64,000 nucleotides of DNA from Pseudoduganella sp. (GTDB taxonomy: Bacteria; Pseudomonadota; Gammaproteobacteria; Burkholderiales; Burkholderiaceae_D): positions 4,357 through 68,356 of the forward strand of contig JAJTCO010000008.1 in the NCBI GenBank assembly GCA_021323265.1. The letters are read 5' to 3'. Within the stretch, counting starts at the first letter, position 1. Each line of letters begins with the position of its first letter. This document shows positions 5,472 to 45,536 of this stretch, in pieces. The translations under genes and the position numbers were made by a program. The notes below the pieces were generated by a model. The model was not told where the DNA came from. It saw only the letters and a program-made list of their open reading frames with translations, and made no database searches.

Positions 5472-5493
5472 TTCTCCCTGAAGTGAGACTTGC

Positions 5494-5524: not shown

Positions 5525-5540
5525 GTATCCGGAGTTTGAA

Positions 5541-6479
5541 ATGCGACAGATTCTCCTGGCGGCGCTGGCCGCCATCGGCGCGGCAGCCTTGCCGGCCAGT
5601 GCGCTGGCGGCCCCTGCCGCGGTCAGCGGCCCTTACAAGTACCTCTCCCCATGGGATCCAGCGCACGGCGTCCAGACCTGGGCCTTCGCCAGCGGCGAGT
5701 GCGGCCAGGAACGCTGGGGTGGGCTCGATGGCGCCGAGGTGGCTGCCGCCAACGTGGCGCGCTTCGTGCAGGCCGGCGTGGGCTACATCGTTTCCACGGG
5801 CGGGCAGGGCAACATCTTCACCTGTGCCACCGATGCGGGCATGGAAGCTTTCGTCTCGCGCTACAAATCGGCGCAGCTGATCGGCTTTGACTTCGATATC
5901 GAGCATGGCCAGACGCCGGCGCAGATCGATTCGCTGGTGCAGCGCATCGCCCACGTGCAGAAGACGCATCCGGGCTGGCGCTACAGCTTCACCATCGCCA
6001 CCCATGCTGCATCCGACGGCAGCCGGCGCAGCCTGAACGCCACTGGCGAGCAGGTGCTGGCGGCGCTGCGCCGGCACGCCGTGCAGGACTTCGTCCTGAA
6101 CCTGATGGTGATGGATTACGGGCCGGCCAGCCGCAAGGTGTGCGTGGTACGGCGCGGGCGTTGCGACATGGGCGCGTCGGCCGTGCAGGCGGCGCACAAC
6201 GTGCACCGCAAGTACAAGGTGCCGTATGCGCAGATCGCGCTGACGCCGATGATCGGCGTGAACGACGTGCTGGAGAACGTCTTCACGCTGGAGGACGCGC
6301 GCGCCACGGCACAGGCGGTGCGCAAGATGGGCATGGCGGGCGTGCATTACTGGTCGCTTGACCGCGACAAGCCGTGCGCCAAGCCAACCAAGGGCGCCGA
6401 TCCGTCGTGCAGCACGATGCCGGACGTGCCTGCCGGGGCCTACCAGCGGGCGCTGGTGCCGCCGCCGGCAACGCAATGA
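5541..6479 (+). CDS. Secreted GH18 chitinase-like glycoside hydrolase
   Basis: Signal peptide; 'IVSTGG' (SxGG), 'GFDFDIE' (DxDxE), 'NLMVMDYG', 'TPMIGVND', 'HYWSLDRD'. Confidence 0.85.
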   Translation: MRQILLAALAAIGAAALPASALAAPAAVSGPYKYLSPWDPAHGVQTWAFASGECGQERWGGLDGAEVAAANVARFVQAGVGYIVSTGGQGNIFTCATDAGMEAFVSRYKSAQLIGFDFDIEHGQTPAQIDSLVQRIAHVQKTHPGWRYSFTIATHAASDGSRRSLNATGEQVLAALRRHAVQDFVLNLMVMDYGPASRKVCVVRRGRCDMGASAVQAAHNVHRKYKVPYAQIALTPMIGVNDVLENVFTLEDARATAQAVRKMGMAGVHYWSLDRDKPCAKPTKGADPSCSTMPDVPAGAYQRALVPPPATQ

Positions 6480-8715: not shown

Positions 8716-8731
8716 CGGCTCCCTCTAGTCG

Positions 8732-8768
8732 AAAAAAAAGCGGGAAGGCCCGAAGGCCTTTCCCGCTT
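8732..8768 (-). terminator. Rho-independent terminator after the TPR gene
   Basis: AAGCGGGAAGGCC-CGAA-GGCCTTTCCCGCTT, with A8 on the + strand (U-tract on the - strand). Confidence 0.8.
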
Positions 8769-8791
8769 GTGTGTCGTTCACGACAACTGCA

Positions 8792-10087: not shown

Positions 10088-10182
10088 GGTAGGTGATCCT
10101 TCTTGTGGTTGAGGCAAACTTCTATTTTCCCATAATTTCGGCAGGGAGCCGGATTTCTGAAGTAGCCAATTGTAACGATTTC

Positions 10183-11280
<1,098 letters not shown>

Positions 11281-11281
11281 G

Positions 11282-12571
11282 TCAGGCCGCTTCCGGCACG
11301 GCGCCGCCGGTGCTCTTGTCGCGCGACTCCATCGGGATGAACTGCGACAGGATGGCCACCGGCACGGCGGCCAGCAGCACCCAGAGGAAGAAGTTCTGGT
11401 AGCCGATGGCCATCTGCACGTCGCCGCTGATCCAGCGGAACAGCACGAAACCCAGCTGCATGACGCCGGTGGAGAAGGCGTAGTGCGCGGTGGTGTACTT
11501 GCCCGGCGCCACCACCTGCATCATGTACAGGATCACACCGACGAAGCCGAAGCCGTAGCCGAACATCTCCACGCTGAGCGCCACGCCGATCAGGGTCAGG
11601 TCGGTGGGCAGGGCGTGCGACAGGTAATAGAACACCAGGTTGGGCAGGTTCATCGCCAGGATCAGGAACAGGATGGCGCGGCGCAGGGTGAGCCAGGAGG
11701 TGAAGTAGCCGCCCAGGATGGAGCCGATGATGAAGGCGATGGTGCCGGTGGTGCCGTACACGGCGCCCACTTCGGACGTGCTCAGTCCCAGGCCACCCGC
11801 TTCGCGCGCTTCGCGCAGGAACAGCGGGCCGATGGTCTGCACCTGGGCTTCCCCGGCGCGGAACAGGATGATGAACAGGATCGAGACCCAGATGCCGGGC
11901 TTGCGGAAGTAGTCGATGATCACTTCCTTGAGCGTGCCGGCCACGCCGCCGAAGGTATGGTCGTCCAGGCGCGCGTTGGGGCTGAGCGGCAGCGCCCAGG
12001 CGTTGTAGCCGCCCAGCGCGCACATGGTCAGGCCCAGGAGGCCGAACACGATGGTCCAGGCGGCCGTGATGCCCTGGGTCTTTTCCAGGTAGCCCGCCAG
12101 CATCAGCAGGCCGCCTTGGGCCAGGAAGCGCCCGGCGTTGAAGAAGGTGCCGATCCAGCCGGCATACTGCGCCTGCTGCTTCTCGCTCAGGCTGGCGATG
12201 TACAGGCCGTCGCAGGATATGTCATGGGTCGCCGAGGAGACCGAGGCCAGGAACAGCACGGCGATACAGGCGCTGAGCCAGAAGGGGAACTGCAAGGCCA
12301 GCGCCACCAGGCCGAGGCACACGCCGCACAGCACTTGCAGCGCCACCACCACGATCTTCTTGTTGGGCGCCAGTTCGAGGAAAGGGCTCCACAGCGGCTT
12401 GAAGATCCAGGCGCCGCCCAGCAGGGCGGCCCAGTGGCTGATCTCGGCGTTGCTCATGCCCATGCTTTTCATCATCTGGCCGAAGACGAGGGCGATGGCG
12501 AAGTAGGGCAGGCCCTGCGCCAGGTACAGCGTGGGAATCCACTTCAGCGGGGTGCGGCGAACGGCGTCCAT
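11282..12571 (-). CDS. AmpG-like MFS transporter
   Basis: '[13 protein letters not shown]', '[10 protein letters not shown]', '[12 protein letters not shown]'; about 12 TM segments. Confidence 0.85.
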
Positions 12572-12580
12572 CTTTTCTCC

Positions 12581-14068
12581 TTAGGCGAAGCCGGGAACCG
12601 GGCAGCGTCCGGTGGCTTCCAGTGCGCCCGACAGCCAGGCGTTGACGGCGTCCAGCGCCGGGGCGGCGAAGCCGTAGGTCATCAGGGCCGGGGCCTGGAT
12701 GTCGAGCGCCTGATATGGATTCCACAGGGCCAGGTGCAGGTCCGGCTTCCAGTGCCGGCGCGCGTTCTCGCCGTAGCGCAGGCGCGAGGTGGAGGCCAGC
12801 ACGGTGAAGCGGCCATCCTGCGGCAGCGCGGACCAGTCGAAGGTGGCCGCATCGGCGAAGGTAAGCAGTTCCACGTCGTACAGCTTGCCCAGCGAGGCGG
12901 CCACCGTGGCGGCCGGCACGCCGGCTTCGGACACGCCGTCGCTCACCACGTCCTGGCGCACCACCAGGCGCACCTTGGCGCCGGGCGCCGGGCGCTGCGG
13001 GTTGCCACGTGCGGTCAGGCCGCGGCGCCAGCCCTCGGCCATGATGGCGCGGTCGGCCGCGTCCTCCTTGTACGAGCGTTGCTGGCAGGGATAGGCCAGG
13101 GCCAGCGCGTTCAGGCGCGCCAGCCGCTCCTCCACGGCGGCCTGGCTCAGCGAGCCGTCGGCCAGGGCGGCGGCGATGGCGTCCAGCGTTTCGTTCTGCG
13201 TGTCGGTAGTGCCCAGGGCCATCACCATGTCGGCCCCGGCCAGCAGGGCGCGCACGGCGGCGTTGCCCACGCCGTAGCGGCCGGCGATGGCGTGCATGTC
13301 CATGCCGTCGGTGATGATCACGCCCTGGTAGCCCCACTGCCGGCGCAGGATGCCGTCCAGGATGGCGGGCGACATGGTGGCCGGATTGTCGGCGTCGATT
13401 GCCGGGTAGACGATGTGCGCGGTCATCATGGCCGGCGCCACGGGGGCGGCGGCGCGGAACGGCGCCAGTTCCAGCGCGTCGAGCTCGGGCAGCGCCTTGT
13501 CCACGGTCGGCAGGTCGCGGTGCGAGTCGACGTGGGTGTCGCCGTGCCCGGGAAAGTGCTTCACGCAGCACGCAACGCCTTCGGCATGGCTGCCGGCCAT
13601 CCAGGCCATGGCCAGTTGCACCGCGCGCGTGGGTTCGGCGCCGAAGGAGCGCTCGGCGATCACCGGGTTGTCCGGATTGTTGTTCAGGTCCAGCACCGGG
13701 GCGAAGTTCCAGTTGAAGCCCAGCGACTTGGCGGCGCGCGCCACGGCGGCGCCGGTGCGGTAGGCCAGGTCCGGGTCGTCGGCGGCGCCCAGGCCCATGG
13801 CGGCCGGCGGCGCGGGCACCCAGGTCGAGCGCACCACGGCGCCGCCTTCCTGGTCGATCGCGATCAGGGCGTGCGGTCCCATCGCCTCGCGCAGGTCGGC
13901 GGTCAGTTTCCCCAGTTGCGCCGAGTCGGTCATGTTGCCGCGGAACAGGCACACGCCGCGGATGCCGTTGTCGCGGATGAAGTCGGCCATCGCCGGTTCC
14001 AGCACGGTGCCGGGGAAGCGGATCATGATCAGTTGTCCCGCGATTTTTCGAAGTTCTTGTGTGCTCAT
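12581..14068 (-). CDS. nagZ: GH3 beta-N-acetylhexosaminidase
   Basis: 'IAIDQEGG', 'NFAPVLD', 'KHFPGHGDTHVDSH', 'MMTAHI', 'IITDGMDM'. The true start MSTQEL at 14068 overlaps the upstream stop. Confidence 0.9.
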   Translation of the reverse strand: MSTQELRKIAGQLIMIRFPGTVLEPAMADFIRDNGIRGVCLFRGNMTDSAQLGKLTADLREAMGPHALIAIDQEGGAVVRSTWVPAPPAAMGLGAADDPDLAYRTGAAVARAAKSLGFNWNFAPVLDLNNNPDNPVIAERSFGAEPTRAVQLAMAWMAGSHAEGVACCVKHFPGHGDTHVDSHRDLPTVDKALPELDALELAPFRAAAPVAPAMMTAHIVYPAIDADNPATMSPAILDGILRRQWGYQGVIITDGMDMHAIAGRYGVGNAAVRALLAGADMVMALGTTDTQNETLDAIAAALADGSLSQAAVEERLARLNALALAYPCQQRSYKEDAADRAIMAEGWRRGLTARGNPQRPAPGAKVRLVVRQDVVSDGVSEAGVPAATVAASLGKLYDVELLTFADAATFDWSALPQDGRFTVLASTSRLRYGENARRHWKPDLHLALWNPYQALDIQAPALMTYGFAAPALDAVNAWLSGALEATGRCPVPGFA

Positions 14069-14868
14069 TTGACTGCTCCGTCCATGCCGCGCATGAAGTA
14101 ACGTTGGGTGAATAGGAATGCCGCCAGGGTCGGCACGATAGTGATGATGGTCCCCGCCGCAATGACGCGCGTGCTGCTGCCGAAGGTGCCGCGCAGGTAC
14201 AGCACGCCCACCGAGAGCGGGAATTCGTCCGGCTTGCTCATGACGATGGAAGGCCAGATGTATTCGTTCCAGGCCTCGACGGCGGTCAGGATGCCGACCG
14301 TGGCAAGCCAGGGCGCGATCAGCGGCAGCATGATCCTGGTGAAAATGGTCCATTCCGAGGCGCCGTCCACGCGCGCCGCGTCGACCAGGTCTTGCGGCAC
14401 TTCCTCGAACGCCTGCTTGAGCAGCAGGATCGCCACCGCGTTCACCACGTTGGGCAGGATCACGCCGGAATAGGTGTCGACCAGGCCCAGCTCCGTCACC
14501 GTGATGAAGTTGACCAGGAAGTTCACTTCGGACGGCAGCACCATGGTGGCCACGATCAGCCCGAACACCAGCTTGCGCCCCTTGAAGTGCAGGCGCGCCA
14601 GCGGATAGGCGGCCATGGAGCACAGCACCAGCTTCCAGATCACGGTAAACACCGTGATCAGGATGGAGTTCTTGAGGAAGGACCAGATGGGGATGACGCG
14701 CAACACTTCCGCGAAGTTTTCCAGCGACGGCTCGCGCGGCCAGAAGGTCGGCGGGAAGGCGAAGATGTTGCCTTCGGTGGACAGCGCCGTCACCAGCGTC
14801 CACCAGAACGGGAAGATGCACAGCAGGGCGATCGCCGCCAGCAGCAGGTAGTGGACGGCCTTTTTCAT
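14065..14868 (-). CDS. Carbohydrate ABC transporter permease
   Basis: EAA motif 'EEVPQDLVDAARVDGASEW'; TM helices. Confidence 0.92.
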   Translation of the reverse strand: MKKAVHYLLLAAIALLCIFPFWWTLVTALSTEGNIFAFPPTFWPREPSLENFAEVLRVIPIWSFLKNSILITVFTVIWKLVLCSMAAYPLARLHFKGRKLVFGLIVATMVLPSEVNFLVNFITVTELGLVDTYSGVILPNVVNAVAILLLKQAFEEVPQDLVDAARVDGASEWTIFTRIMLPLIAPWLATVGILTAVEAWNEYIWPSIVMSKPDEFPLSVGVLYLRGTFGSSTRVIAAGTIITIVPTLAAFLFTQRYFMRGMDGAVK

Positions 14869-15704
14869 CGGTGCTTCGGCTTCAGGTAGCGCAGGCAAAG
14901 CAGGGCGATGCCGATGCAGATCAGGGAGACGATGAAGCTGGCGGCCAGGGCGCGCGGCAGCTTCAGGTGCTTCAGGCCCTGGTCATAGGCGTAGTACAGG
15001 GCGGTGAAGGTGGAGTTCATCGGACCGCCCTGGGTCAGTACGTCCACTTCCTGGTACGCCTTGAGCGCGCCCAGGACGGACAGGATGGTGCAGACCATGA
15101 TGGTGGGGCGCAGCATCGGCACGGTGATGTGCCAGAAGCGCTGCCAGCGCGTGGCGCCGTCGAGGATGGCGGCTTCCTGCATCTCCTGCGGGACCGACTG
15201 CAGGGCGGCCAGGTACATCACCATGTACCAGCCCAGGCCGCGCCACAGCGTCACGAACATGATGGCGGCCAGGGCGAAGGTATCGTCCTGCAGCCAGCCG
15301 ATGCGCGTGCCGAGGATGTAGTTCAAGGCGCCCTGTTCGTGGAACATGAAGCCCCACATGATGCCCACGACCGACACCGTGGTCACCACCGGCACGTAGT
15401 AGGCGGCGCGGAACAGGCGGATGCCGGGCAACTGGTTGTTCACCAGGACCGCCAGCGCGATGGCGCCAAGCTGCACGCAGGGCACGATCAGGAGGAAGAC
15501 CAGGGAATTCTTCAGGCCGGTGACGAACATCTCGTTATCGAAGATGTAGCGGAAGTTGTCCAGCCCGACCCAGTGCGTGTCGCGCACCAGCGAGAAGTCG
15601 GTAAATGCCAGCACCGAGCCAAACAGCACCGGCCAGAAGGCGAACAGCGCCAGCAGCGCCAGGGCGGGCGCCAGGAACAGCCAGGCCGCCAGCGAACGCT
15701 TCAT
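14865..15704 (-). CDS. Carbohydrate ABC transporter permease
   Basis: 'WVGLDNF', EAA motif 'EMQEAAILDGATRWQRFWHITVPML'. Confidence 0.92.
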   Translation of the reverse strand: MKRSLAAWLFLAPALALLALFAFWPVLFGSVLAFTDFSLVRDTHWVGLDNFRYIFDNEMFVTGLKNSLVFLLIVPCVQLGAIALAVLVNNQLPGIRLFRAAYYVPVVTTVSVVGIMWGFMFHEQGALNYILGTRIGWLQDDTFALAAIMFVTLWRGLGWYMVMYLAALQSVPQEMQEAAILDGATRWQRFWHITVPMLRPTIMVCTILSVLGALKAYQEVDVLTQGGPMNSTFTALYYAYDQGLKHLKLPRALAASFIVSLICIGIALLCLRYLKPKHR

Positions 15705-16963
15705 GGCGCCCCCGGCTTCAGTTTGCGGTTCCAGATGGCTACGGCGGCGTCGAGCGCCTGCCCGATGTCCTGCCGCCCGGTGACGCCGGCTTCGACTGCC
15801 TTCACCAGTGAGCGGCGCAGTTCGTCGTAGTCTTCGACGCCGGCCACGTACATGGTGCGCGAGTGCGGCATCGAGACCGCGCCGGCGGCGACGGCCTTTT
15901 CGGCGGCGCCCGCGTTGGGCGGGACTGCGGTAAAGAACGGGTCGTTGGCCGCCTGCGCGGAGGCGGGAAAGACGCTGGCCTGGCGCGCGAACGCCAGCTG
16001 GTTCTCGTCGCTGGTGAGAAAGCGCGCGAACTTGCCGATGCCGGGCAAGTCCTTGGCCGCAACGCGCGCCGGCACGCCGAAGTGGATCAGCCATCCGCCG
16101 TCTGCAATGCCGGTCGGCCCTAGCGGGGCTGGCGCCACGTCGGTGATGGCGTACACGTCGCGTGCGTCGGCCTGGATGCGCTTGAGTGCCGTGGGGGGCG
16201 CCAGCAGCATGCCCAGGCGGCCGCTCTTGTAGGCTTCCACGGCGGGCGGGAAGTTGTCTTCGGCGAACAGGCCATCCTTCAGCAGGCCGCCGGCGCGGTA
16301 GGTGTCGGCCAGCTTGCGCACGAAGGCGACGTGGGCGGGCGAATTGAACACCGCCCTGCCGCCCGCCAGTACCGGCAAGCCTTGCTGCAGCATTAGTCCA
16401 TCGACCTTGGACAGGGCAGGGCACAGCCCGGCCTTGCCGGTGCGCTGGGCGATCTGCCGGGCGAAGGCCAGTTGTTCGTCGAGGTTGCGCGGCGCATGCG
16501 CAATGCCCGCTGCGCGGAAGAGCTCACGGTTGTAGGCGATCACCGCGACATTGCTGTACATCGGGAAGCCGTAGGTCTTGCCGTTGAAGGACAGGTCTTT
16601 CAGGGCGCTGGGCAGGTAGCGCGCGCGCTCGCTCCCGAGCAGGGCGTCGACCGGCGTCAGCAGGCCGTCGCGGGCGAATTCCTCGGCCCATGGGACGTTC
16701 AGGTTGACCAGCGCCGGCGGCTTGCCGGCCACGATGCGCGTGACCAGCTTGGTCTGGATGATGTCCCACGGGAAGTCGACCCATTCGATGCGCACGCCGG
16801 GATTGGCGGCTTCGTAGCGGCGCACCACGTCTTCGAAGTAGGGCGTGAAGCGCGGCTTCATGCTGAAGGTCCAGAACTCGATGCTCTGCTGCGCTGCGGC
16901 TTGCGTGGCCGGCGCGGCGCCCGCGATGGCCATCAATGCAGCTAGCAGGAGACTGTTCTTCAT
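15701..16963 (-). CDS. Sugar ABC transporter substrate-binding protein
   Basis: Signal peptide; SBP_bac_1-like 'NGKTYGFPMY...YNRELFRAAG'. Confidence 0.9.
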   Translation of the reverse strand: MKNSLLLAALMAIAGAAPATQAAAQQSIEFWTFSMKPRFTPYFEDVVRRYEAANPGVRIEWVDFPWDIIQTKLVTRIVAGKPPALVNLNVPWAEEFARDGLLTPVDALLGSERARYLPSALKDLSFNGKTYGFPMYSNVAVIAYNRELFRAAGIAHAPRNLDEQLAFARQIAQRTGKAGLCPALSKVDGLMLQQGLPVLAGGRAVFNSPAHVAFVRKLADTYRAGGLLKDGLFAEDNFPPAVEAYKSGRLGMLLAPPTALKRIQADARDVYAITDVAPAPLGPTGIADGGWLIHFGVPARVAAKDLPGIGKFARFLTSDENQLAFARQASVFPASAQAANDPFFTAVPPNAGAAEKAVAAGAVSMPHSRTMYVAGVEDYDELRRSLVKAVEAGVTGRQDIGQALDAAVAIWNRKLKPGAP

Positions 16964-16981
16964 CGATGGCCGCGCGCTGGG

Positions 16982-26435: not shown

Positions 26436-26696
26436 ATGAAGAATCGTCAAGCCCTGATTGCCGCCGCCCTGGCCACCGTTTGCGCCACCGCCGGCAGCGT
26501 CGCCGCCGCCCAGGACAAGCCAGCGGAAAAGGAAAAGTGCTACGGCATCGCCAAGGCCGGCCAGAACGACTGCGCCACCGGCACCCACGGCTGCTCCAAC
26601 CAGGCCAAGAGCGACAACATGGCAAGCGAATGGAAGTATGTTGCCAAAGGCACGTGCGAGAAAACCGGTGGCAAGACCACCCCGCCAGCCAAGTAA
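26436..26696 (+). CDS. DUF2282 / BufA1-type bufferin precursor (exported, 4 conserved Cys)
   Basis: Signal peptide, then '[14 protein letters not shown]...HGC...[14 protein letters not shown]'; GAGGAGA RBS. Confidence 0.88.
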
Positions 26697-26700
26697 GCCG

Positions 26701-28326
26701 ATGCCGCAATCCCACCCGCGTCACCCAGTTGCAGGTGCTGGAATCGGATTGCGGGCACCGCACTACCGCCAATTCCTCGAGCAGCGGCCAGGCGCCGCCT
26801 GGCTCGAGGTTCACACTGAAAACTACCTCGACCAGGCCGGCGCCGACTTCCACGTGCTGCAGGAACTGCGGCGCGACTACGCCATCAGCCTGCACGGGGT
26901 CGGTCTCGGTCTCGGCTCCGCGCGCGGCTTTTGCGCCAGCCACCTTGAGCGCGTCGCCAGCCTGGCGCGCCGCATCGAACCCGCACTGGTTTCCGAGCAC
27001 CTGTGCTGGGGCGCCGTCTTCGACCGCCACCTGAACGACCTGCTGCCGCTGGCGCTCACGCACGAGGCACTCGCACTGCTGGAAGGGCGGGTAGGGCGCA
27101 TGCAGGAAGCGCTTGGCCGCACCATCCTGCTGGAAAACGTCTCGAGTTTCGTCCGCTTCGCCGACGACGCCATGAGCGAAGCGGAATTCCTCGCCGCCCT
27201 TGCGCGCCGCACCGGATGCGGCCTGCTCCTGGACGTCAACAACCTCTACGTCAACCAGTGCAATCACGAGGAAGACGCGCTGGCCGCGCTGCAAGCGATC
27301 GCCCCCGGCAGCGTGGGCGAAATCCACCTTGCCGGCCATCTTGTAACGGAAGCGGCAGTGGTCGACCACCACGGCGCCACGGTCGCCGAGCCCGTCTGGC
27401 GCCTGTACCAGGCCGCCCTCGCACGCTTCGGCGCCGTCCCCACGCTGATCGAATGGGACAGCGACATCCCCGCCCTGGACGTATTGCTGGGCGAAGCCGC
27501 CAAAGCCGACGCCCTCGCCAGCGCCTTTCCCCCAGCAAATGTCCACCTTGGGGTCAGACCCCCAGGTGGACATTTACTGGCGGAAAGCGCGGTGCTGGCG
27601 GCGCAGCAGCAGGCGTTTGCGGACGCCCTGTTCGCGCCCGCAGCCGAGGCGGGCCTGCCCATCACGCATGCCGAGCGTTTCGGCCTGTACCGGGGCAACC
27701 TGGGCGCGACCTGGGGCAAGGCCCTGGCCGCCGCCTATCCCGTCATCGCGCAGCTGGTGGGGGAGGAGTTCTTCGCTGCACTGGTGCGCGCGTACGGTCG
27801 CAAGCACCCATCCGACAGTGGCGACCTGAATCGTTTCGGCGCCCATTTCGCGCACTTCCTGCATACCTTCCCCCATGCGCAGGACTTGCCCTATCTGCCC
27901 GACATGGCGCGCCTCGAATGGCAACTGCACCGCATCCACTACGCGCCGCATGAACCGGCGCTGGCGGCGCAGGACATCGACCCGCAAACGGTCGAGGAAA
28001 GCCGCTTCCCGTGGCAAGCCACCGCCCGCCTGTTCGCTTCCGACTGGGCCGTGGTGCCGCTGTGGCTGGCGCACGAGGCCGGCAGCGGCGTCGCCTTCCC
28101 GCCGGCGATGGACGTGCCCAGCCGCGCCCTGCTGAGCCGCCCGCAGTGGACGGCGCAGCTCACGCCGCTGCAGGCGCCGGAATACGCCGCGCTGCAGGCA
28201 CTGCAAGAAGGAAAAACAGTGGGCGCCGCCCTGGACGCCGCCTTTGCGCTGGATGAGGAGTTCAACGTCGCCGCCAGCCTCCAGCAGTGGCTGCAGCAGC
28301 AAATCCTAGTGAAACGCCCGCATTAA
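26701..28326 (+). CDS. Fused MNIO (DUF692, BufB-like) and DUF2063 (BufC-like) protein
   Basis: N-half: 'GIGLRAPHY','EVHTENY','SLHGVGL','SEHL','LLENVS','LLDVNNLY','EIHLAGH','DHHG','TLIEWD'. C-half: 'RFGLYRGN...[13 protein letters not shown]...SGDLNRFG...LPDMARLEW'. Single open frame. Confidence 0.88.
27537..27575. repeat. 39-bp palindromic (REP-like) element in-frame in the domain linker
   Basis: AAATGTCCACCTTGGGGTC-A-GACCCCCAGGTGGACATTT: 19-bp arms with one mismatch. Confidence 0.8.
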
Positions 28327-37061: not shown

Positions 37062-37218
37062 GGTGGCTCCTTGGGTTGAACGTGAATGGTATCAGGACGA
37101 CGTTTAACGCCACGCCGGATCGACATGACCACCGGATTTTTTGCGGTATATCAACACCGCGCGCCGCATCTTCGCGGACTATCTGTCTCTCGTCGTGCAG
37201 TGAATCGAGTCCCAGGCA

Positions 37219-37644
37219 ATGGTGACAATTCGGGAACTGGAGCAGCAGGAACTCGTTGCGGCTTACGCGGTGATGCGGGAGCTGCGGCAGCATCTCGGCC
37301 TGCAGCAGTTCCAGGATTGCGTCGCAAGGCAACGGCGCAGCGGCTACCGGCTGCTGGGCGGGTTCGATGCCAAGGGCAAGTTGCTGGCCGTGCTGGGCAT
37401 GCGGCCGGTCTCCACCCTGGCCAGGGGCGACCACCTGCACATCGACGATCTTGTCGTCACCGAACGCAAACGTTGCAAAGGTATCGGCAAGGCCATGCTG
37501 CGGCATGCGGAATGCTGGGCGCAGGAACAGGGACTCGTTGCGGTCTTTCTCGATAGCCGCCAAGACGCTGTGCGCTTCTATTCCGCGCTGGGCTACCAGC
37601 CGCATGCCGCAGTGCTGATGCGAAAGCGAATCGACGTTAGTTAA
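37219..37644 (+). CDS. GNAT family N-acetyltransferase
   Basis: 'LHIDDLVV', acetyl-CoA motif 'RCKGIGKAML', 'AVRFYSALGY'. Confidence 0.85.
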   Translation: MVTIRELEQQELVAAYAVMRELRQHLGLQQFQDCVARQRRSGYRLLGGFDAKGKLLAVLGMRPVSTLARGDHLHIDDLVVTERKRCKGIGKAMLRHAECWAQEQGLVAVFLDSRQDAVRFYSALGYQPHAAVLMRKRIDVS

Positions 37645-37666
37645 ACCCACCACAAGGAGCGTTAAC

Positions 37667-37897
37667 ATGAGCGATACCAAAAGCAAGCAGCCTATCCAGT
37701 TCGACCTGTCGCCGGAGCATGCCGAGGCGCTGAGCAAGCTGGCGGGCGACCGCCAGGTCCGTCTGAGCGGCAGCGTAAAGAATGGGAAAATGCTGGTGAA
37801 CTTCATCGCCTGCAATGCGCCTTTCGTGGCTTGCAATGCCCCGTTCACCGCCTGCAACGCCGCCTTCACCGCTTGCAACGCACCGTTCCGCAAGTGA
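37667..37897 (+). CDS. Putative RiPP precursor peptide: 45-aa leader plus four heptapeptide FxACNA(P/A) cores
   Basis: Strong AAGGAG RBS. C-terminus FIACNAP-FVACNAP-FTACNAA-FTACNAP-FRK. Sits among modifying-enzyme genes. Confidence 0.8.
   Translation: MSDTKSKQPIQFDLSPEHAEALSKLAGDRQVRLSGSVKNGKMLVNFIACNAPFVACNAPFTACNAAFTACNAPFRK
37802..37885 (+). repeat. 4 x 21-bp coding tandem repeat (FxACNAP/A)
   Basis: ttc atc gcc tgc aat gcg cct / ttc gtg gct tgc aat gcc ccg / ttc acc gcc tgc aac gcc gcc / ttc acc gct tgc aac gca ccg. Differences are mostly synonymous. Confidence 0.9.
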
Positions 37898-37904
37898 GCG
37901 ACGC

Positions 37905-38648
37905 ATGACTTTCATCGCTACCGACACGATGAATGCGCTTCGCCAGCGCGGCGAAGCGCAGCTACCTTGTTACGAGCAGGCCTTGCGCAGCGCATGCGAA
38001 GCGAGTCCGCCCCCCTTTGGCGAAGCCTGGTACGGAGAAAAGTACCGTGAGCTGTCCAGCGATCCAGGCTGGCTTGCCACGTCGCTGATCGCCAACGCGG
38101 AAAAGGAAGGGGAGGGTTCGCGCAAGCTGTGGGAGCTGGTGGCGCGCTGCCCCGATCCCGAGATCGCGGAAGCGATCAGGCAGCATGCCATCGACGAATC
38201 GCGCCACGCCATGCAGTACGTGGCCATGTGCGAGCTGGTCTTTCCGGGCGCGCTGGAGGGCGACATGAAGGACTATGCCGATGGCCTGTCGCCGCGCTAC
38301 TCCGCGCGCGACTTCCCCGCGCCTGCGCCGCACGCGTCGGCGCAGGCCGTGCTCGATGAACTGGTGCAGATGAACATCGGAGAGATACGCACACGCATCC
38401 ACCAGCTCCTGATGAGCCCCGTGATCACGGCCTATTGTCCGCCGGAGCGCAGGGAGCGGCTGCACAAGCTGCTTGCTTCGCTGATGGAGGACGAGACCCG
38501 GCATATCCAGTACACGGCCCGTCTGATCAACGCGGCCGGGGAACAGGGCAGTGCCGACTTCGTGTTGCACACGACACGCCGGCGGGTGCGCGAGTTCAAC
38601 GAACTGACATTGGCCGAAGTGGGCGAATCGATGTTCACGGGCGAATAG
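37905..38648 (+). CDS. Ferritin-like diiron-carboxylate protein (putative oxidative tailoring enzyme)
   Basis: Four-helix ligand pattern: 'EKEGEG' ... 'IDESRH' ... 'IGEIRT' ... 'EDETRH'. ATG is 7 bp after the precursor stop (alternative ATG 37929). Confidence 0.75.
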   Translation: MTFIATDTMNALRQRGEAQLPCYEQALRSACEASPPPFGEAWYGEKYRELSSDPGWLATSLIANAEKEGEGSRKLWELVARCPDPEIAEAIRQHAIDESRHAMQYVAMCELVFPGALEGDMKDYADGLSPRYSARDFPAPAPHASAQAVLDELVQMNIGEIRTRIHQLLMSPVITAYCPPERRERLHKLLASLMEDETRHIQYTARLINAAGEQGSADFVLHTTRRRVREFNELTLAEVGESMFTGE

Positions 38649-38658
38649 GGCAAGCACG

Positions 38659-39459
38659 ATGCTGGCGGCAATAAGGCGGCATTTCGATGCGCACTACGCC
38701 GCCGGCGAATCACCGCTCGACCTCTCCCTGCAGGCGCTGCTGCCTCCGGCCCTGGCGGCGCCGGAAACGGCGGCCCTGCGCAGTTCCGCATTCCTGACCC
38801 CGGCCGGCTGGCGCCGCCTGTGCGGCATGGCCGCGCAGGCCAGCGTCATGCAGGGTTGCGTTTCGCCGGTGCGCTTGCTCGACGCCGGCTGCGGCCGGGG
38901 TGGCGTGGGCGCGGCGCTGGCCTCCTCGATCGGCGCCAGCCTGGTCGGGGTCGACTTTTCCGAAGCGGCGATTGCGGCCGCGCGCGCCGACCACCATCAA
39001 CCGGGCGCCGCCTTCATGGTGGCCGATATCGCCAGCCTGCCGTTCGAGGATGGCGCGTTCGCCATTGCCTGCACCATCGATGCGCTGCACCTGGTGCCCG
39101 ATCCCCAGCTGGCGCTGCGCGAACTGCGGCGTGTCCTGCGGCGCGGCGGCGTGATGTTCGGCGGCGTGCACCGGATCGGCACCAGCGGCGCCGAAGCGCG
39201 CCACATGGCCCACTGGCAGGCCTTCTTCGCCGACGCCGGCTTTGGCAATCAGTGCTGGCAGGATGTGTCGCAGGAGTGGCGCTCGGTCATGCACGAGAAG
39301 CATGCACGCCGGCTGGCGCAGCGCGGCGTCCTGGTGGCCAGGCATGGCGGCGCCGCCGCGCTGGAATGCGACGTCTCGCGCCAGATGGTGGGGTCGCTGG
39401 ACGAACCTGGATTCATCAGCCGCAACGCCAGGTTCGAGTTCCTCGTCACCGCTACTTGA
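38659..39459 (+). CDS. Class I SAM-dependent methyltransferase (Methyltransf_11-like)
   Basis: 'LLDAGCGRGG','GVDFS','ADIASLPFEDGAF','LRELRRVLRRGG'. Confidence 0.85.
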   Translation: MLAAIRRHFDAHYAAGESPLDLSLQALLPPALAAPETAALRSSAFLTPAGWRRLCGMAAQASVMQGCVSPVRLLDAGCGRGGVGAALASSIGASLVGVDFSEAAIAAARADHHQPGAAFMVADIASLPFEDGAFAIACTIDALHLVPDPQLALRELRRVLRRGGVMFGGVHRIGTSGAEARHMAHWQAFFADAGFGNQCWQDVSQEWRSVMHEKHARRLAQRGVLVARHGGAAALECDVSRQMVGSLDEPGFISRNARFEFLVTAT

Positions 39460-40552
39460 GCGCCTGCAGCTGCCTGCCCTGGCGCGCGCCGCAGATCACG
39501 GGAGCCTTGTCCGGCAGCTTCAGCATGTCGAAGTAGTTCTGGCCAAGCGCGATGTTGCGGAAGGCGTCGTCGTCGACGAACTGGTAGATGAAGCTGGTCG
39601 CCTTCAGCTCTTCCAGGTAGGAGTCGAAGGTCTTGTCGTCGGAGGCGACGAAATCGGTGCCGGGCAGGATGCGCCTGGAATACTGGTTGATGAAGGGGAC
39701 GTACTTGGCCCGTACCGCAGGCTTCAGGAAGTAGTTGTCGTAGATGACGCGCCAGGACAGGTCGATCATCATGTTCGGATGCTTGTCCAGCAGGTTCCTG
39801 AGGATCTTGATGTGCTGGTCCGGGTCGATCGCGGTGAGCTCCTTGGACAGGCCCATGTGCAGCCACACCACCTTGTTGTCCGGATAGCGCTGCATCACCT
39901 CGGTGATCAGGTCCAGGTATTTGGTGGGCGCGCCGTCTTCCCCCAAGTCGCCGTGCAGGCCGATCGGCATGTTGCGCTCGCGCAGCGCCGCCATGAAAGG
40001 CCCCCAGCCGCGGATCTCCTCGATGGTGACGGGGCGATGGCCGTTGTTGAACAGGGCTTGCTTGACCAGGTTCAGTTCACCCATCCACTTGAACAGGCCC
40101 GGAAACTCCTCGTCCAGCACCGCCATGCCGCGCTTGACCGTGTGCGGCTTGGCCAGGTCGGCGAAGGACATCGACATCGTCAGGCGCGGCACCTGGACCG
40201 GAAACTCGGACACGTTTTCCGCATTGATGATGTCGTTCTTCAGGTTCGGGATCACCGGCGTGCCGGGGCAGTTCAGGTAGTAGGTGCAGCTCGAATCATA
40301 GGGTAGCGTCTGGCCGATGCCGAACACGTTGGCGTAGCGGATGCCCGCATTCTTCAGCATGCGCGTCAGGTCCTGGTGCGGGATCGGGCTGCCGCCGAAA
40401 GGGCGGAAGTGCAAATGGCTGTCGACGATGGCCAGGTTGGGCTGGGTGCTGCGGTCGTAGCATGCAGGACCGGAATCGGCAGCGGCGGGAACGGCCGCAC
40501 CGGCGGCCAGGGCCGCCCACATGGCGGCACGGGTCAAGGCAAACGCTTTCAT
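39452..40552 (-). CDS. Exported amidohydrolase-superfamily protein (Amidohydro_2-like)
   Basis: Signal peptide; 'IVDSHLH', 'WMGELN', 'IGLHGD', 'WLHMG', 'IDLSW', 'PGTDF'. Confidence 0.8.
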   Translation of the reverse strand: MKAFALTRAAMWAALAAGAAVPAAADSGPACYDRSTQPNLAIVDSHLHFRPFGGSPIPHQDLTRMLKNAGIRYANVFGIGQTLPYDSSCTYYLNCPGTPVIPNLKNDIINAENVSEFPVQVPRLTMSMSFADLAKPHTVKRGMAVLDEEFPGLFKWMGELNLVKQALFNNGHRPVTIEEIRGWGPFMAALRERNMPIGLHGDLGEDGAPTKYLDLITEVMQRYPDNKVVWLHMGLSKELTAIDPDQHIKILRNLLDKHPNMMIDLSWRVIYDNYFLKPAVRAKYVPFINQYSRRILPGTDFVASDDKTFDSYLEELKATSFIYQFVDDDAFRNIALGQNYFDMLKLPDKAPVICGARQGRQLQALK

Positions 40553-41793
40553 GCTTCCTCCTCAAGGTCAGGGTTGGCCGGACAGGGCCGGCCGCTTTGG
40601 TGGGTGACGGTCTCCGCCAGGGCGGCGGATTCGGCCGGCGCGTCGAGCGCCGCGTACAGGGCGGCAGCGCGGCAGTAGGGCGCGCGGGCGAACTGCCCGC
40701 TGGCGCGCGCGGCGCGCAGGGCGTCGAGCGCCTGCTGCCGCCTGCCGCCAGCCGCCTCCACGGCGGCGGCCAGCACCCAGTCGTGCAGGCCGCGCGCCGC
40801 CGGCGGCAGCAGCGAGAGCGCCTGTGCCGCCTGCGCATGGCGCGCCTGCTCCAGGTAGTAGGCTGCCGCTTCGGCGGCATACACCGGGGCGTAGTCGCGC
40901 GCCATCTGCGCAAAGCGCCGCTCGGCTTCGGCCAGCCAGGGCGCCCGCTGCGCGGGCGGGAGCAGACGCGCCAGCTGCATGGGCAGGTGGGGATCGGGCG
41001 ACAGCGCGATGGCCAGGCGCAGGCGTTCGATGGCCTGCTGTTGCAGCCCGTTGCGCCGCTCCGCCGCCGCCAGCGCTTCGAGCAAGGGCACATGACGGGG
41101 CAGGCGCCGCTGCGCGGACAACAGCACGGCGTAGGCTTCGTCATGCCGGCCCTGCGCCGACAGCAGGCGCGCCTGTCCCAGGTACAGCCAGACGGCCGGC
41201 ACGGGATGGGGATCTGTCAGGTGGCTGCGCGCCAGGTCGAGCTGTTGCTGTGCCGCCGCCAGCCGGCCCTGCGCGATCAGCCAGCCAGCTTTGCGCGCGT
41301 ACAACAACGGGTTGCGGCTGTCCGCCAGCACTTGCTCCAGCAGCTGCCATGCCTCGCGCGTGCGGCCCCGGTTCCACCACAGTTCCGCCTGCAGGACGGC
41401 CGCTTCCCGGCCGGCATCGCGCGCGCCATGCTGCGCCAGCTCCGCTGCCGCGTCGTCGAAACGGTGCAGGCTCAGTTGGATGCTGGCGCGCTGCGTCGAC
41501 ACGGCGGCACTGGCGGGCAGGGGGCGCAGCACGGCCAGCGCCTGCTCCATGGCACCCACGTCGTTGAGCAGCTGGCCGCGCAGGTAGAGCAGGCGCGCCA
41601 GTTCGCGTGCCTCCGCTTCGGGCAAGGCGCCGGCCCCGGCCCGCTGCTGCAGGCTGGCCAGGCGATCATCCAGGTTGTGCTGGAAGATGGCGCTGTCGGT
41701 GCTGCGCACGTGCGCCAGCCAGTCCGCCGCTGCTGCCGGCGCGCCGCCCAGGGCCGCGAGCGGCAGCACGGCGGCCGCGGCCAGCCGGCGCAC
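40549..41793 (-). CDS. Exported tetratricopeptide-repeat protein
   Basis: Signal-like 'RRLAAAAVLPLAALGGAPAAA'; TPR-like helices 'SLHRFDDAAAEL','RGRTREAWQLLEQ','QGRHDEAY'. Start uncertain (GTG 41793 or ATG 41835). Confidence 0.7.
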   Translation of the reverse strand: MRRLAAAAVLPLAALGGAPAAAADWLAHVRSTDSAIFQHNLDDRLASLQQRAGAGALPEAEARELARLLYLRGQLLNDVGAMEQALAVLRPLPASAAVSTQRASIQLSLHRFDDAAAELAQHGARDAGREAAVLQAELWWNRGRTREAWQLLEQVLADSRNPLLYARKAGWLIAQGRLAAAQQQLDLARSHLTDPHPVPAVWLYLGQARLLSAQGRHDEAYAVLLSAQRRLPRHVPLLEALAAAERRNGLQQQAIERLRLAIALSPDPHLPMQLARLLPPAQRAPWLAEAERRFAQMARDYAPVYAAEAAAYYLEQARHAQAAQALSLLPPAARGLHDWVLAAAVEAAGGRRQQALDALRAARASGQFARAPYCRAAALYAALDAPAESAALAETVTHQSGRPCPANPDLEEEA

Positions 41794-41812
41794 GGCGTCG
41801 CCGCACCGCGCC

Positions 41813-42961
41813 TTACTGGCTGGGCGGCTGCACATAGGGGAACTCCGTCTGCGCCGGCTTGGCGGGCGCGTGCACGCCGACCCCGCGGTTGGGTTCATCG
41901 CGCCGCGGGCCGTTGATCAGCAAGGTGAGCATCGACTTGATCACATCCTCGTTCGGCAGGCGGCCCCCCATGGTCTGCACCGGCTTGCCCAGCACCAGGG
42001 CCTTTTCGATGCCCAGGTAGCCCGCCTGCTGGCTGTCCATGCTGGCCGTCTGCGCCGTGTTGAGGATCAGGAAGTCATCGAGCAACAGGTCGAGCAGCGG
42101 ATGGGGCGTCGGCCAGTCAAGGACGTTGCTGGCGTCGAGCGCCTTCTCGAAGTTGTCCATCCTGGCCAGGCCGTTCTGCAACGCCTGCCGATACAGCTTG
42201 GCGTGGGCCGGATCGACATTGAAGCTGTCTTCCGCATTCCACCAGTCCTTCAGCTTGTCGTCGCGGATCAGGAAGACCGTCATTTCCAGGCGCCCCATGC
42301 GGTCGATCCGGGCCGGCTTGCTGCCGCTGCCGTGGGTTTCCGATACCACCGCCCACAGCTGGCTTTCCAGCTGCGAGGCGTCGAGCAGGAACACCATGCT
42401 CAGCACGTTCTTGCCGGCCAGGGAATTGAGGCCGGGGCGGTTGTCCATGCCTTCGTCGCGCCACACCGGCAGGCGCACGCGCGCCAGGTCGGTGAACGAC
42501 TGGTCGGCACGGTTGCCGGCAAACACGCGCAGGCGCTGGTCGCCGCCACCCTGGGGCAGGTTGACCGGGGCCGTGACGTCGGCCAACTGGCTGCCATTGC
42601 GCAGCAGGCGGCAGCGCATGGCCTGGTTGGCCGCCGCATCGGCGCGGCAGCGCAACTGGTACTCCAGCGCGGCGTCGACCTGGGCGCGCAAGGGCTTGCT
42701 GGAAAAGCCGCGTATCGGCCGCCAGCGGATGCGGTACTCGACGGCATCGCTGAAGCGCGTGTTGGCGGTGGCCCCCGGGTAGACGTTCAGGATGAAGGCC
42801 AACTGGCGCCCCGGCAGCGCCACGGCGAAGAAGTCGGTGATGTCCGCCGCCGGTTCCGCCGTCACGGCCGGGCCATCCCAGTGATCGGTGGCCGTGGCCG
42901 GCCCTGCCAGGCAAAGCAGCAGGGCCAGCCCCAGCGTACGCCAGGCGCGCGCCGCGGCCAT
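41813..42961 (-). CDS. DUF4331-like exported protein
   Basis: Signal peptide, then 'DHWDGP...ADITDFFA', 'VFAGNRAD', 'GKNVLS', 'IDRMGR', 'GGRLPNEDV', 'FPYVQPP'. Confidence 0.75.
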   Translation of the reverse strand: MAAARAWRTLGLALLLCLAGPATATDHWDGPAVTAEPAADITDFFAVALPGRQLAFILNVYPGATANTRFSDAVEYRIRWRPIRGFSSKPLRAQVDAALEYQLRCRADAAANQAMRCRLLRNGSQLADVTAPVNLPQGGGDQRLRVFAGNRADQSFTDLARVRLPVWRDEGMDNRPGLNSLAGKNVLSMVFLLDASQLESQLWAVVSETHGSGSKPARIDRMGRLEMTVFLIRDDKLKDWWNAEDSFNVDPAHAKLYRQALQNGLARMDNFEKALDASNVLDWPTPHPLLDLLLDDFLILNTAQTASMDSQQAGYLGIEKALVLGKPVQTMGGRLPNEDVIKSMLTLLINGPRRDEPNRGVGVHAPAKPAQTEFPYVQPPSQ

Positions 42962-42962
42962 G

Positions 42963-43697
42963 TCAGTACGCAGCCAGCAGCTGTCCCCAGCCGTTGATCC
43001 GGGTACGGATGTCGTTGCTGCGCAGGCAGTGCCACCAGGTCGTGGCATTGACCGACAGCGTGGGCTTGCCCAGCCAGCCTTCGGCCTGGGCCGCCACGCG
43101 CGCCATGCGCAAGTCCGTCCCCAGTTGCACCAGCGCCTGCGCCTGCGGCACGTTCACTTCGCGCAGGCTTTCGCGCAGCACTTCCTCCGACACTTCGCCG
43201 ATCTCGATGGCGTTCGTGCAGTGCAGGCTTTTCTGCGCCACCACTTCGACGCCGAACTCCTTGAAGAAGGAGACGATCTTCTCGTCCGCCACCGCAGGGT
43301 AGGGCGTGACGACGCCAATGCGGGTGAATTGCAGCGCGCGCTGGGCCGCCAGCATGGCGTCGACCGGCGTGATCATCTCCAGGCCGGTATCGTGCCCGAT
43401 GGTGGCCTTGATCTGGCGGTTGCCTTCCAGCCCGCCCCACAGGTTGCTGCTGGAAATGCCCAGCAGCAGGCTGTCCGGCTTGCATTGCAGGCGCGCCGCG
43501 GTCTCCGGCAGGCGCGCGTTGACGCCTTCCACGAAGCGCTGCAGGCCGTCCGGCGCGCTCCAGTCGACGGCATCGATGATGATGCGCGCGGTGGCGATGG
43601 TCGCGCCCTCCACCCGCATGCTCCACAACTCGTTCTCCACCGTGACATTGGTGGCCGGCGTCAGCACGCCGATTTTCCTGCCCCATTGCGATTGCAT
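42963..43697 (-). CDS. Asp/Glu/hydantoin racemase superfamily protein (maleate isomerase/arylmalonate decarboxylase-like)
   Basis: 'KIGVLTPATNVTVENE','RIGVVTPY','LGKPTLSVN..TWWHCLR','GWGQLL'. Confidence 0.8.
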   Translation of the reverse strand: MQSQWGRKIGVLTPATNVTVENELWSMRVEGATIATARIIIDAVDWSAPDGLQRFVEGVNARLPETAARLQCKPDSLLLGISSSNLWGGLEGNRQIKATIGHDTGLEMITPVDAMLAAQRALQFTRIGVVTPYPAVADEKIVSFFKEFGVEVVAQKSLHCTNAIEIGEVSEEVLRESLREVNVPQAQALVQLGTDLRMARVAAQAEGWLGKPTLSVNATTWWHCLRSNDIRTRINGWGQLLAAY

Positions 43698-43718
43698 GGC
43701 ATTCTCCTTGTGCGAGGT

Positions 43719-45239
43719 TCAGCGCAGCTGCGGCGAGTTGAAGTTCTCGATGGCCGGCAGGTTGGCGGCGTTGGTGCCGGCAATGCGGCCGTAGACGATG
43801 GTTTCCGAAAAATTGGTCGAGGTCTGGTACTTGAAGCCCCAGATCGAACCGCATTCGCCGGCCGCGAACAGGTGGGGAATCGGCTTGCCGTCCGGATCGA
43901 GCACGCGCGCGTGTTCGTCGCGGCGCGGTCCGCCCTGGGTGTTGTACATCAGCGGCAGGATCTTGGCCACGTAGTAGGGCGGGTCGATCGGCTTGAGGGT
44001 TTCCGGCGGGCGGCCGAAGGCGCGGTCGACGCCGGCGCGCGCCTGGGCGTTGTAACCGCCAAGGGTGTTGGCCAGGGCGGACTGCTCGATGCCGGTGATG
44101 CGCGACAGCTCCGCCATGTCGTGCGCCACCATGATCCAGCCCTTGGCGATTTCGGCCGAATTGTCGGCGCTCCACTTGTAGCCCTTGACCACCACGTTGT
44201 AGGAGAAGATGTCCATGGCCAGCGGCGCGCCGCGGCCGTTTTCCTCGTCCATGATCAGGAAGGAGGGCAGGCGCGAGAACTTGTAGGTCGGCAGGTTGAA
44301 CTCGCCGATCGACGCGCCGGCGTTATGGGCTTCCAGGCGCGCCTCGTTGACGAAGCGGTCGCCGTCGCTGTCGACGTAGATGAAGCCGGGGCGCCGTACC
44401 GTCAGCACGAAGCCGGCCTCCCAGCCTTCCGGCCGGATGCCGATGGCGCTCGCTTCGGCATCCATATGCCACAGCTGGGCGCCCACTTTCTGCGCCAGGC
44501 GCACGCCGTCGCCCGTGTTGTGCGGCCAGCCGGACGCCTGGATCTCCTGCGGGCGCAGATACTGCGTCTTCAGTTCGGGATCGTATTCGAAGCCGCCGCA
44601 GGTCATGACCACCCCCTTGCGCGCCTTGCAGAAGAAGCGCTCGCCGGCATGTTCGGCGATCACGCCGATGGCCTGGCCCAGGTCGTTCTTGACGATCTCC
44701 ACCACGGCGGTGCCGGTCATGACCTCGATGTTGTCTTGCGCGCGCACATTGCGGTTGATCAGGTTCCACACGCGGGCGCCGCCGGTCCGTTCCGGCACGC
44801 TGTCGGTCTGCTTCAGCCGGCGCAGTTCCAGGTTCAGGTTGCGCGCGGCCGGCAATTGCGAAAAGGTTTTATCGGGGATGTAATATGAAAGGCTCGGATC
44901 GCTAAGCTTATAATCGTAGACTTCCAATTCACCACCCAGGTCCTGGAACCATTGCGGGTTTTGCAGCAGGCCATCGACAAAAGTCTGCACCAGCACGCGC
45001 GGGGTGGTGCCGTGGGTAACCTGGTGCAAGTATTCGACGAATTGCTCTTTCTGCTCGACCTGTTTCGGATAAATCATCATGGCCGACGAGACCAGCGAGT
45101 TGCCGCCCGGCTCAGGGGCCTTTTCAAGCAGCAGTACGCCGGCGCCATGGCGCGCGGCCGTCAGGGCGCAGGTGCCGCCTGCCGCACCGTAGCCAATCAC
45201 GATGACATCCGTTTCCACCTTGGTCTGATATTGCGGCAT
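43719..45239 (-). CDS. FAD-binding oxidoreductase (FAD_binding_2; fumarate reductase flavoprotein/KstD/TcuA-like)
   Basis: 'DVIVIGYGAAG','LLEKAPEPGGNS','VVMTCGGF','NTGDG','RFVNE','TQGG','IPHLFAAGE','GRIAG'. Confidence 0.88.
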   Translation of the reverse strand: MPQYQTKVETDVIVIGYGAAGGTCALTAARHGAGVLLLEKAPEPGGNSLVSSAMMIYPKQVEQKEQFVEYLHQVTHGTTPRVLVQTFVDGLLQNPQWFQDLGGELEVYDYKLSDPSLSYYIPDKTFSQLPAARNLNLELRRLKQTDSVPERTGGARVWNLINRNVRAQDNIEVMTGTAVVEIVKNDLGQAIGVIAEHAGERFFCKARKGVVMTCGGFEYDPELKTQYLRPQEIQASGWPHNTGDGVRLAQKVGAQLWHMDAEASAIGIRPEGWEAGFVLTVRRPGFIYVDSDGDRFVNEARLEAHNAGASIGEFNLPTYKFSRLPSFLIMDEENGRGAPLAMDIFSYNVVVKGYKWSADNSAEIAKGWIMVAHDMAELSRITGIEQSALANTLGGYNAQARAGVDRAFGRPPETLKPIDPPYYVAKILPLMYNTQGGPRRDEHARVLDPDGKPIPHLFAAGECGSIWGFKYQTSTNFSETIVYGRIAGTNAANLPAIENFNSPQLR

Positions 45240-45504
45240 AGCGAAGTCCCTTTCAATTTACATCAATCGGAAACAAGCAAAAATGCGCGACAAGCGGCCG
45301 CAAAAATGCCTTGCACATTTTCGCAATAGATTAAATAGCCTATTTGAAGTTAATACCGGAAGAATGCCTTGTGTTTGCTTTTGGGCACGAAATTGATAAT
45401 ACGCCCGACAATTCCAATTGCAAGAATATTTTTTAAAATAGGATTATTCCTAAAACTGGCGGGTTTCAATATGTCGGTAATAATTCGCCAGTTATTAATG
45501 AAAT

Positions 45505-45536
45505 AAAAAAAGCCCGCCGGCAGACGCGGGCGGGCT
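45505..45536 (-). terminator. Rho-independent terminator of the S9 peptidase gene
   Basis: A7 then GCCCGCC...GGCGGGC stem. Confidence 0.7.

Follow-up and report, generated by a model that had tools for sequence, protein, structure and literature searches.

The window, meaning the whole 64,000-nucleotide stretch of DNA that was analysed, contains a four-gene operon on the forward strand that encodes a GNAT acetyltransferase, a small precursor peptide, a ferritin-like diiron enzyme and a SAM methyltransferase (Table 1). An earlier note had dealt with the precursor; the adjoining diiron enzyme, methyltransferase and GNAT, which were absent from it, define the system. No consensus promoter or terminator was found, nor any tRNA, and no second copy of either precursor or enzyme was detected in the organism's own genome (83% complete).

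Table 1. Coordinates of the operon, its island and the related Rhizobium loci.
Feature	Positions	Strand	Basis or remark
GNAT acetyltransferase, 141 aa	37219..37644	+	Pfam Acetyltransf_1, E 8.5e-14
Shine-Dalgarno AAGGAG	37654..37659	+	7 nt upstream of ATG; read from sequence
Precursor ORF, 76 aa	37667..37897	+	translation matches the peptide of the earlier note
Leader, residues 1-45: I-x-F-D-L recognition strand, helix, LAG(D/G), beta-hairpin	37667..37801	+	alignment and model
Four tandem heptad cores FIACNAP-FVACNAP-FTACNAA-FTACNAP	37802..37885	+	residues 46-73
F-R-K-stop tail	37886..37897	+	Phe = +3 aromatic for the last core
Ferritin-like diiron enzyme, 247 aa, predicted maturase	37905..38648	+	ligand pattern, model, structural matches
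Class I SAM methyltransferase, 266 aa	38659..39459	+	Pfam Methyltransf_11, E 5.5e-22
8.4-kb island: operon and five opposite-strand genes	37080..45506		missing from six close congeners
Rhizobium phosphonate-cluster locus L092 (NZ_CP049249)	8721-9936		
Rhizobium phosphonate-cluster locus L093 (NZ_CP090100)	4798-16968		

The precursor gene is real and under selection. The peptide had been described as precursor-like, with four heptads under protein-level selection, and this was borne out by the translation and by a pN/pS ratio of 0.12 for the first three cores against 26 homologous loci, with a value of 0.50 for 30 leader codons; the predicted ribosome-binding site was likewise present. The cores form a 21-bp array of 4.1 copies with 75% match (TRF). 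Codon differences among the four units were mostly synonymous, as had been claimed (15 synonymous and 8 non-synonymous; pS 0.68, pN 0.11), but the TTC (F) and TGC (C) codons were identical in all units; across loci both vary synonymously, with TTC/TTT counts of 84/36 and TGC/TGT counts of 96/24. A contig from an independent run covers the GNAT gene, the precursor and most of the diiron enzyme, and its precursor shows three differences, all synonymous. No RNA data set was listed as containing the sequence, and two 151-base contigs from a run labelled metatranscriptomic are probably DNA and were not counted as evidence of expression. Scans of the precursor gave no Pfam family above cut-off and no NCBIfam match.

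The enzyme encoded downstream is predicted to belong to the ferritin-like diiron oxidase/oxygenase type and to use iron and O2. Its sequence carries the pattern E..ExxH..E..ExxH on four helices (E68, E98/H101, E160 and E197/H200), and the predicted ligands E68, H94, E98, H101, E160, E197 and H200, together with N157, were invariant in all 72 locus enzymes; in 107 distant relatives they were retained at 88-96%. The AlphaFold model is a helical bundle (pLDDT 93), whose best structural matches were diiron helical bundles with Z values of 12.5-14.9 and 9-16% identity, a Z of 13-15 not being decisive for helical bundles. The top structural match was 8fhc, labelled a MiaE-like hydroxylase (Z 14.9, rmsd 3.3, 184 aligned), and the same protein also led the profile matches to natural solved proteins (E 0.0037). 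Structural ranks 2-4 were taken by CADD (Z 13.1), HrmI and UndA (both Z 12.8), which were tied with ferritin-like matches. These neighbours, that is, the MiaE-like or aldehyde-deformylating-oxygenase-like proteins (8fhc, 5ux2) and the HDOs (CADD, HrmI, UndA), differ from the present enzyme in having no peptide-leader substrate. The HDOs may differ further in their heme-oxygenase pattern, the ligand spacing here, judged from sequence and helix boundaries, appearing four-helix and ferritin-like. Scans of the enzyme returned no Pfam family above cut-off and no NCBIfam match, neither a PDB sequence search nor Foldseek produced a match at E 0.001 or below, and the MNIO model PF05114, which detects the bufferin gene of the window, gave no match. 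Three homologues (P0349, P0373, P0374) are fusions of about 500 aa in which an unassigned N-terminal domain precedes the diiron domain; this N-terminal domain has H-x-D and His motifs and looks 2-oxoglutarate-oxygenase-like by eye, with no Pfam match.

The leader had been supposed to be structured, and in the AlphaFold model it consists of a helix (residues 16-26) and two strands (31-38 and 41-49) at block pLDDT values of 78-90, the core segment being modelled at low confidence. No fold match was found for the precursor model (best Z 2.3) and no usable Atlas feature match, and a likeness to the AbrB-type fold was unsupported. F12 was invariant in 98 aligned precursors, leader and cores were both conserved in more than 100 homologues, and an HMM built from the leader alone retrieved the leaders of distant clades, ranking them above unrelated frames. 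When precursor and enzyme were modelled together, the complex scored 0.90, compared with 0.06 for the best control; the mark used for this score is one that 116 of 157 solved complexes attained, as did 2 of 215 mismatched pairs. Contact agreement among the runs was at least 4% (low), partner pLDDT was at least 51 and one of three runs scored 0.38. The predicted interface comprises leader residues 5-37, with I10 and F12 contacting a conserved enzyme segment (residues 38-44) and residues 165-179, and the leader alone, not the core, was placed confidently. The leader is thus predicted to dock on the diiron enzyme. Double-Gly sites are absent between the cores, as had been noted, although most homologous leaders have LAGG at the helix end, where the window leader has LAGD and then the hairpin. 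A double-Gly site directly before the core with a linked transporter was not found in the window, the two C39 matches of the genome being unlinked frames of 251 and 282 aa; true double-Gly leaders occur in related clades, and the combination with a linked transporter was found in Nannocystaceae-type loci.

Homologous precursor proteins numbered 128. Comparison of repeat number, which the earlier note had proposed, gave 2-6 Cys-Asn units of the form F-x-A-C-N-[AS]-[PA] per precursor in 121 sequences (120 listed and the query), with a spacing of exactly 7 in 332 of 335 intervals. The core register of the family places an aromatic residue at -4, Asn at 0 and a second aromatic at +3, and the Phe of the window tail was taken as the +3 aromatic of the last core because single-core homologues retain both aromatics. 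From 85 loci including the window, four without upstream DNA were set aside, leaving 81. A small upstream ORF with the aromatic-xxx-Asn-xx-aromatic motif was present in 79 of the 80 non-window loci (80/81 with the window) and in 20 of 896 control windows, so that a short gene for leader and core clustered with modifying enzymes, the layout typical of RiPPs, is general among them. The presence of Asn in 69/69 distinct precursors follows from the search pattern itself and is not evidence. The diiron enzyme is the sole gene common to all loci.

The remaining genes vary with the type of core, in counts taken from contigs many of which are short. Loci with several Cys-Asn cores carry a methyltransferase (27 loci), with or without a GNAT homologue; the latter was found in 11 of the 85 loci, the window included, and is likely an accessory tailoring enzyme. 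An S8 protease accompanies FxxSNxxF cores (6 loci) and an asparagine-synthetase-like gene FxPWNCxF cores (3 loci). In three Nannocystaceae-type loci, which also encode a GT4 glycosyltransferase and a peptidase-containing transporter, 4-8 YxxCNAA cores follow a double-Gly leader. Single FxxLNAPF cores occur with an IucA/IucC-FhuF protein (34 loci); in this type (L041-L083, e.g. L051 1020-2687), a candidate RiPP-siderophore-synthetase hybrid, that protein follows the single-core precursor and the diiron enzyme. On two Rhizobium plasmids the pair lies among genes for PEP mutase, phosphonopyruvate decarboxylase, TauD, AsnB, two kinase-like proteins and a nucleotidyltransferase-like protein, which makes these loci (L092 and L093) candidate RiPP-phosphonate hybrids. 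The companions are mostly group transferases (methyltransferase, GNAT, GT4, IucA/IucC-like ligase, nucleotidyltransferase), and since such enzymes need an O, N or S acceptor, they count in favour of an installed hydroxyl. Two other neighbours were observed, namely a 1100-aa zinc-ribbon/class III cyclase/AAA/TPR gene frequent in the L041-L083 type (26 loci), and a 498-aa membrane protein directly after the enzyme in L003 (5481-6977) with no Pfam or NCBIfam match, the SNH motif of which presumably recalls relatives of the vitamin-K-dependent carboxylase.

The idea that Asn is universal as the central residue was rejected on account of a clade from one cyanobacterial family, found in 21 of 251 genomes, whose enzymes are 34-36% identical to that of the window and keep all seven predicted ligands. 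In 19 of its 21 loci, 21 precursors were found that share a homologous ISFDLSxED..GG leader and in which FxxxNxxF does not occur. Of their 80 aromatics, 44 are followed four residues later by Ile (shuffle mean 12.8; 0/2000 shuffles as high), and some cores are perfect heptads, as in FPIKISP-YPICISP-YPIKISP-Y. The substitutions T163A, R164L, Y105F and T235F were found in 19/19 enzymes of the clade, the so-called pocket residues having been picked by position near E160 and not by measurement in the model. The register is kept, and the residues flanking E160 change, from polar to hydrophobic, along with the central residue; the exception is the plasmid locus L091, which has the hydrophobic pocket yet an F-A-I-R-N core and so breaks the co-variation. 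Most Ile-clade loci have no transferase within 1.5 kb. The leaders of the clade (L103-L123) are of the double-Gly type and its cores are rich in Ile. Nif11-like precursors with PLYG repeats adjoin L116 and L117, and L116 also adjoins a radical SAM gene, which may resemble the spliceases.

The operon, its conservation, the selection on the precursor, the motif register and the invariant predicted ligands indicate that this is very probably a RiPP system with the diiron enzyme as maturase. The residue at position 0, Asn or Ile, is the probable target, and for the chemistry we infer the following model. The diiron enzyme would bind the precursor leader and its two-iron centre would use O2 to oxidise the Asn of each repeat, most likely at C-beta. 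The methyltransferase likely acts on the core Cys or on the new hydroxyl, so that it would cap either the neighbouring thiol or that hydroxyl, and the GNAT may acetylate a hydroxyl or a freed N-terminus. Since the operon has neither a protease nor an exporter, the product would likely remain one multiply modified chain or be trimmed by host peptidases. Hydroxylation at C-beta, giving beta-hydroxy-Asn, is preferred tentatively, its probability lying well short of even, because it is the simplest reaction that Asn and Ile could both undergo, the latter having no side-chain nitrogen and leaving C-H oxidation as the shared reaction, and because it supplies an acceptor for the transferases. Several observations weigh against it, namely the predicted set of three His and four Glu, which equals that of the N-oxygenases AurF, CmlI and DnfA and favours N-oxygenation, the broken co-variation at L091, the lack of a visible partner reductase gene in the operon and the distance of the Ile clade, which may have changed chemistry.

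An unlikely but serious alternative is hydroxylation of the amide nitrogen, by which the Asn carboxamide would become an aspartyl beta-hydroxamate, with 2-8 hydroxamates per chain, and the transferases would then modify the N-OH. AurF, CmlI, TsnB7 and DnfA (PF11583) share the ferritin-like E..ExxH..E..ExxH scaffold and a third His, and the H94-x3-E98-x2-H101 motif mirrors, in count and spacing, H209/E213/H216 of DnfA and H223/E227/H230 of AurF, as given in the available parts of PMC9478400 and PMC11775713. The AurF-like TsnB7 and DnfA are described, in the available parts of PMC5719088, PMC11160463 and PMC9478400, as oxidising a carboxamide side chain, with the Gln amide as the hydroxylated group (PMC5719088, PMC11160463). 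AurF was also the commonest weak Pfam match, reached by 25 of 107 relatives at E 0.01 or better (best E 1.9e-05), but every such match lay below the Pfam cut-off, the window enzyme itself scoring 15 bits (E 0.015) where 29.6 bits are required. The pairing with an IucA/IucC-FhuF protein in one clade and the commonest core count of three or four (99/121 precursors) would agree with a hydroxamate product. Against this, the third His, whose metal contact through H94 is predicted, lies on the first ExxH helix and not on the second as in AurF, and the Ile clade has the same ligands with no side-chain nitrogen to oxidise. The AurF group, moreover, acts on small-molecule or carrier-bound substrates, whereas the substrate here is likely a leader-bearing ribosomal peptide.

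C-beta hydroxylation also has to be weighed against removal of two hydrogens, which we consider unlikely too. It would give either alpha,beta-desaturation of Asn or Ile, to which the thiol could add in the Cys clade, or a cross-link from C-beta to the aromatic ring and hence a ladder of small macrocycles. The aromatic at -4 is the one core feature common to the Asn and Ile clades, weak matches to desaturase families were found in 6 of 107 relatives, and the scarcity of transferases around the Ile-clade enzymes would be expected; however, the many transferases of the Asn clades would be left unexplained, and the aromatic varies (F/Y/W) and may merely anchor binding. Hydroxylation of Asn at C-alpha followed by a break in the backbone, which would release amidated heptapeptides and make the enzyme maturase and protease in one, is improbable. 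The tandem cores are free of spacers and the Cys-clade operons lack a protease, but single-core precursors that end one residue past the motif (FVASNAAFA) come with the S8 protease, and in the double-Gly clades cleavage is supplied separately by the peptidase-containing transporter.

The earlier note had suggested that the Cys residues could form a metal-binding array, and an array of this kind, whether of free Cys or of Cys oxidised in the manner of methanobactin or bufferin, must now be considered a distinctly improbable purpose. Cys is invariant in the near clade of precursors and a separate bufferin cluster is present in the window, but among 69 distinct precursors Asn was preceded by Cys in just 30 and by Leu in 26, the others having S, W, R, T, Q, V or Y, which weakens the idea; nor is the diiron enzyme an MNIO. 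Cys-free cores (FVASNAAF, YAPTNSPF, YIARNGPF and five YKAQNAP-type repeats) adjoin enzymes 50-60% identical to that of the window, and these enzymes are nested among Cys-type enzymes in a quick FastTree tree. This suggests repeated loss of Cys, with just one Cys change being forced by the starred branches of the quick trees. Cys co-occurs with the methyltransferase: of the distinct precursors for which a methyltransferase was seen or at least 1 kb of downstream DNA was present, those with Cys had the gene in 26 of 28 cases and those without Cys in 0 of 25. The loci of this set share kinship. The linkage is a lead for S-methylation that is not independent of phylogeny. Hydroxylation of the aromatic ring, with Asn or Ile as a recognition residue, recalls the aromatic monooxygenase subunits among the structural neighbours (PaaAC, Z 12.0) and is very improbable, since 8 of 69 distinct precursors already carry Tyr at -4 and enzyme changes track the residue at position 0.

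Tandem cores on one leader are known from cyanobactins, dikaritins and microviridin-type precursors, from which the window system differs in its maturase and in having no inter-core spacers or dedicated proteases. The MNIO (DUF692) RiPPs methanobactin, bufferin and chryseobasin (ChrH) likewise depend on an O2-dependent multi-iron enzyme acting on repeated precursor motifs, some with Cys and SAM as here; that enzyme is of another fold and family, the present system has no partner RRE gene, and the residue conserved throughout its family is Asn or Ile and not Cys. The Rhizobium plasmid loci share with the fosfazinomycin pathway, as set out in the available part of a preprint (PMC13622209), the principle of joining a phosphonate to a peptide, but the likeness is limited to that distant clade. 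The pathway relies on an RRE and a YxxP leader and its peptide carries a C-terminal hydrazide, with no ferritin or diiron in the available part of the text (PMC13622209). In the accessible part of a 2026 HDO review, ribosomal peptide modification is mentioned solely via a genome-mining paper (PMC13108848). No description of the enzyme/precursor family was found in the open main texts searched, and the supplementary network of PMC13622209 could include Rhizobium-type loci.

Iron-dependent RiPP maturases are a main source of new enzyme chemistry, and no ferritin-like diiron family was found among them in the literature searched, so that the probable RiPP family described here apparently has a new class of maturase. 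Quite possibly, though with a probability somewhat below even, it forms an undescribed RiPP branch in which a ferritin-like diiron enzyme with RRE-free leader binding installs an O- or N-hydroxyl handle on Asn (or Ile), elaborated, depending on the lineage, by methylation, acetylation, glycosylation, siderophore-synthetase ligation or phosphonate transfer to give ribosomal polyhydroxamate chelators and RiPP-siderophore and RiPP-phosphonate hybrids. Members of the family number in the hundreds and come from several phyla, the recognition motif spans eight residues and a switch from Asn to Ile occurs in nature; site-specific hydroxylation of Asn or Ile, or the formation of peptide hydroxamates, would be a useful tool for peptide engineering. 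Hybrids with siderophore synthetases and with phosphonate pathways, so far unexplored, are suggested by some of its clades. A hydroxamate chain would act as a chelator of iron or an inhibitor of metalloenzymes; otherwise the product would be a modified peptide.

The enzyme is rare and patchy in its distribution. Homologues numbered 331 in the protein database, with 344 clusters at 50% identity and no curated family, and named loci lie in Acidobacteriota, Myxococcota, Cyanobacteriota and Rhizobium. Among sampled genomes the enzyme was found in 0 of 60 relatives, in 0 of 400 others of the phylum and in 0, 1 and 0 of 300 further genomes in the three other phyla sampled; its profile matched 1 of 301 Myxococcota genomes, and viral contigs contained no homologue. 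In Sorangium cellulosum (P0137/P0037), precursor and enzyme occur as SOCE26_078840 and SOCE26_078980, which are not adjacent, and Moorena bouillonii (P0227) has a five-core precursor.

In the window, the operon lies on an island, delimited as such because in 6/6 same-genus loci with a close orthologue of the upstream GST gene the DNA matching about 37080 joins directly to that matching about 45507. The five island genes on the opposite strand (39452-45239) encode an amidohydrolase, a TPR protein, a DUF4331 protein, an arylmalonate-decarboxylase-like protein and an FAD oxidoreductase; clustering was seen with none of the remaining 84 loci, and they were rejected as cluster members together with the M13 and S9 peptidases nearby. 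The separate bufferin-type RiPP cluster of the window (26436-28326) consists of a DUF2282 precursor followed by an MNIO BufB ORF that scores above cut-off and carries a DUF2063 (BufC-like) part in the same frame, the two being apparently fused.
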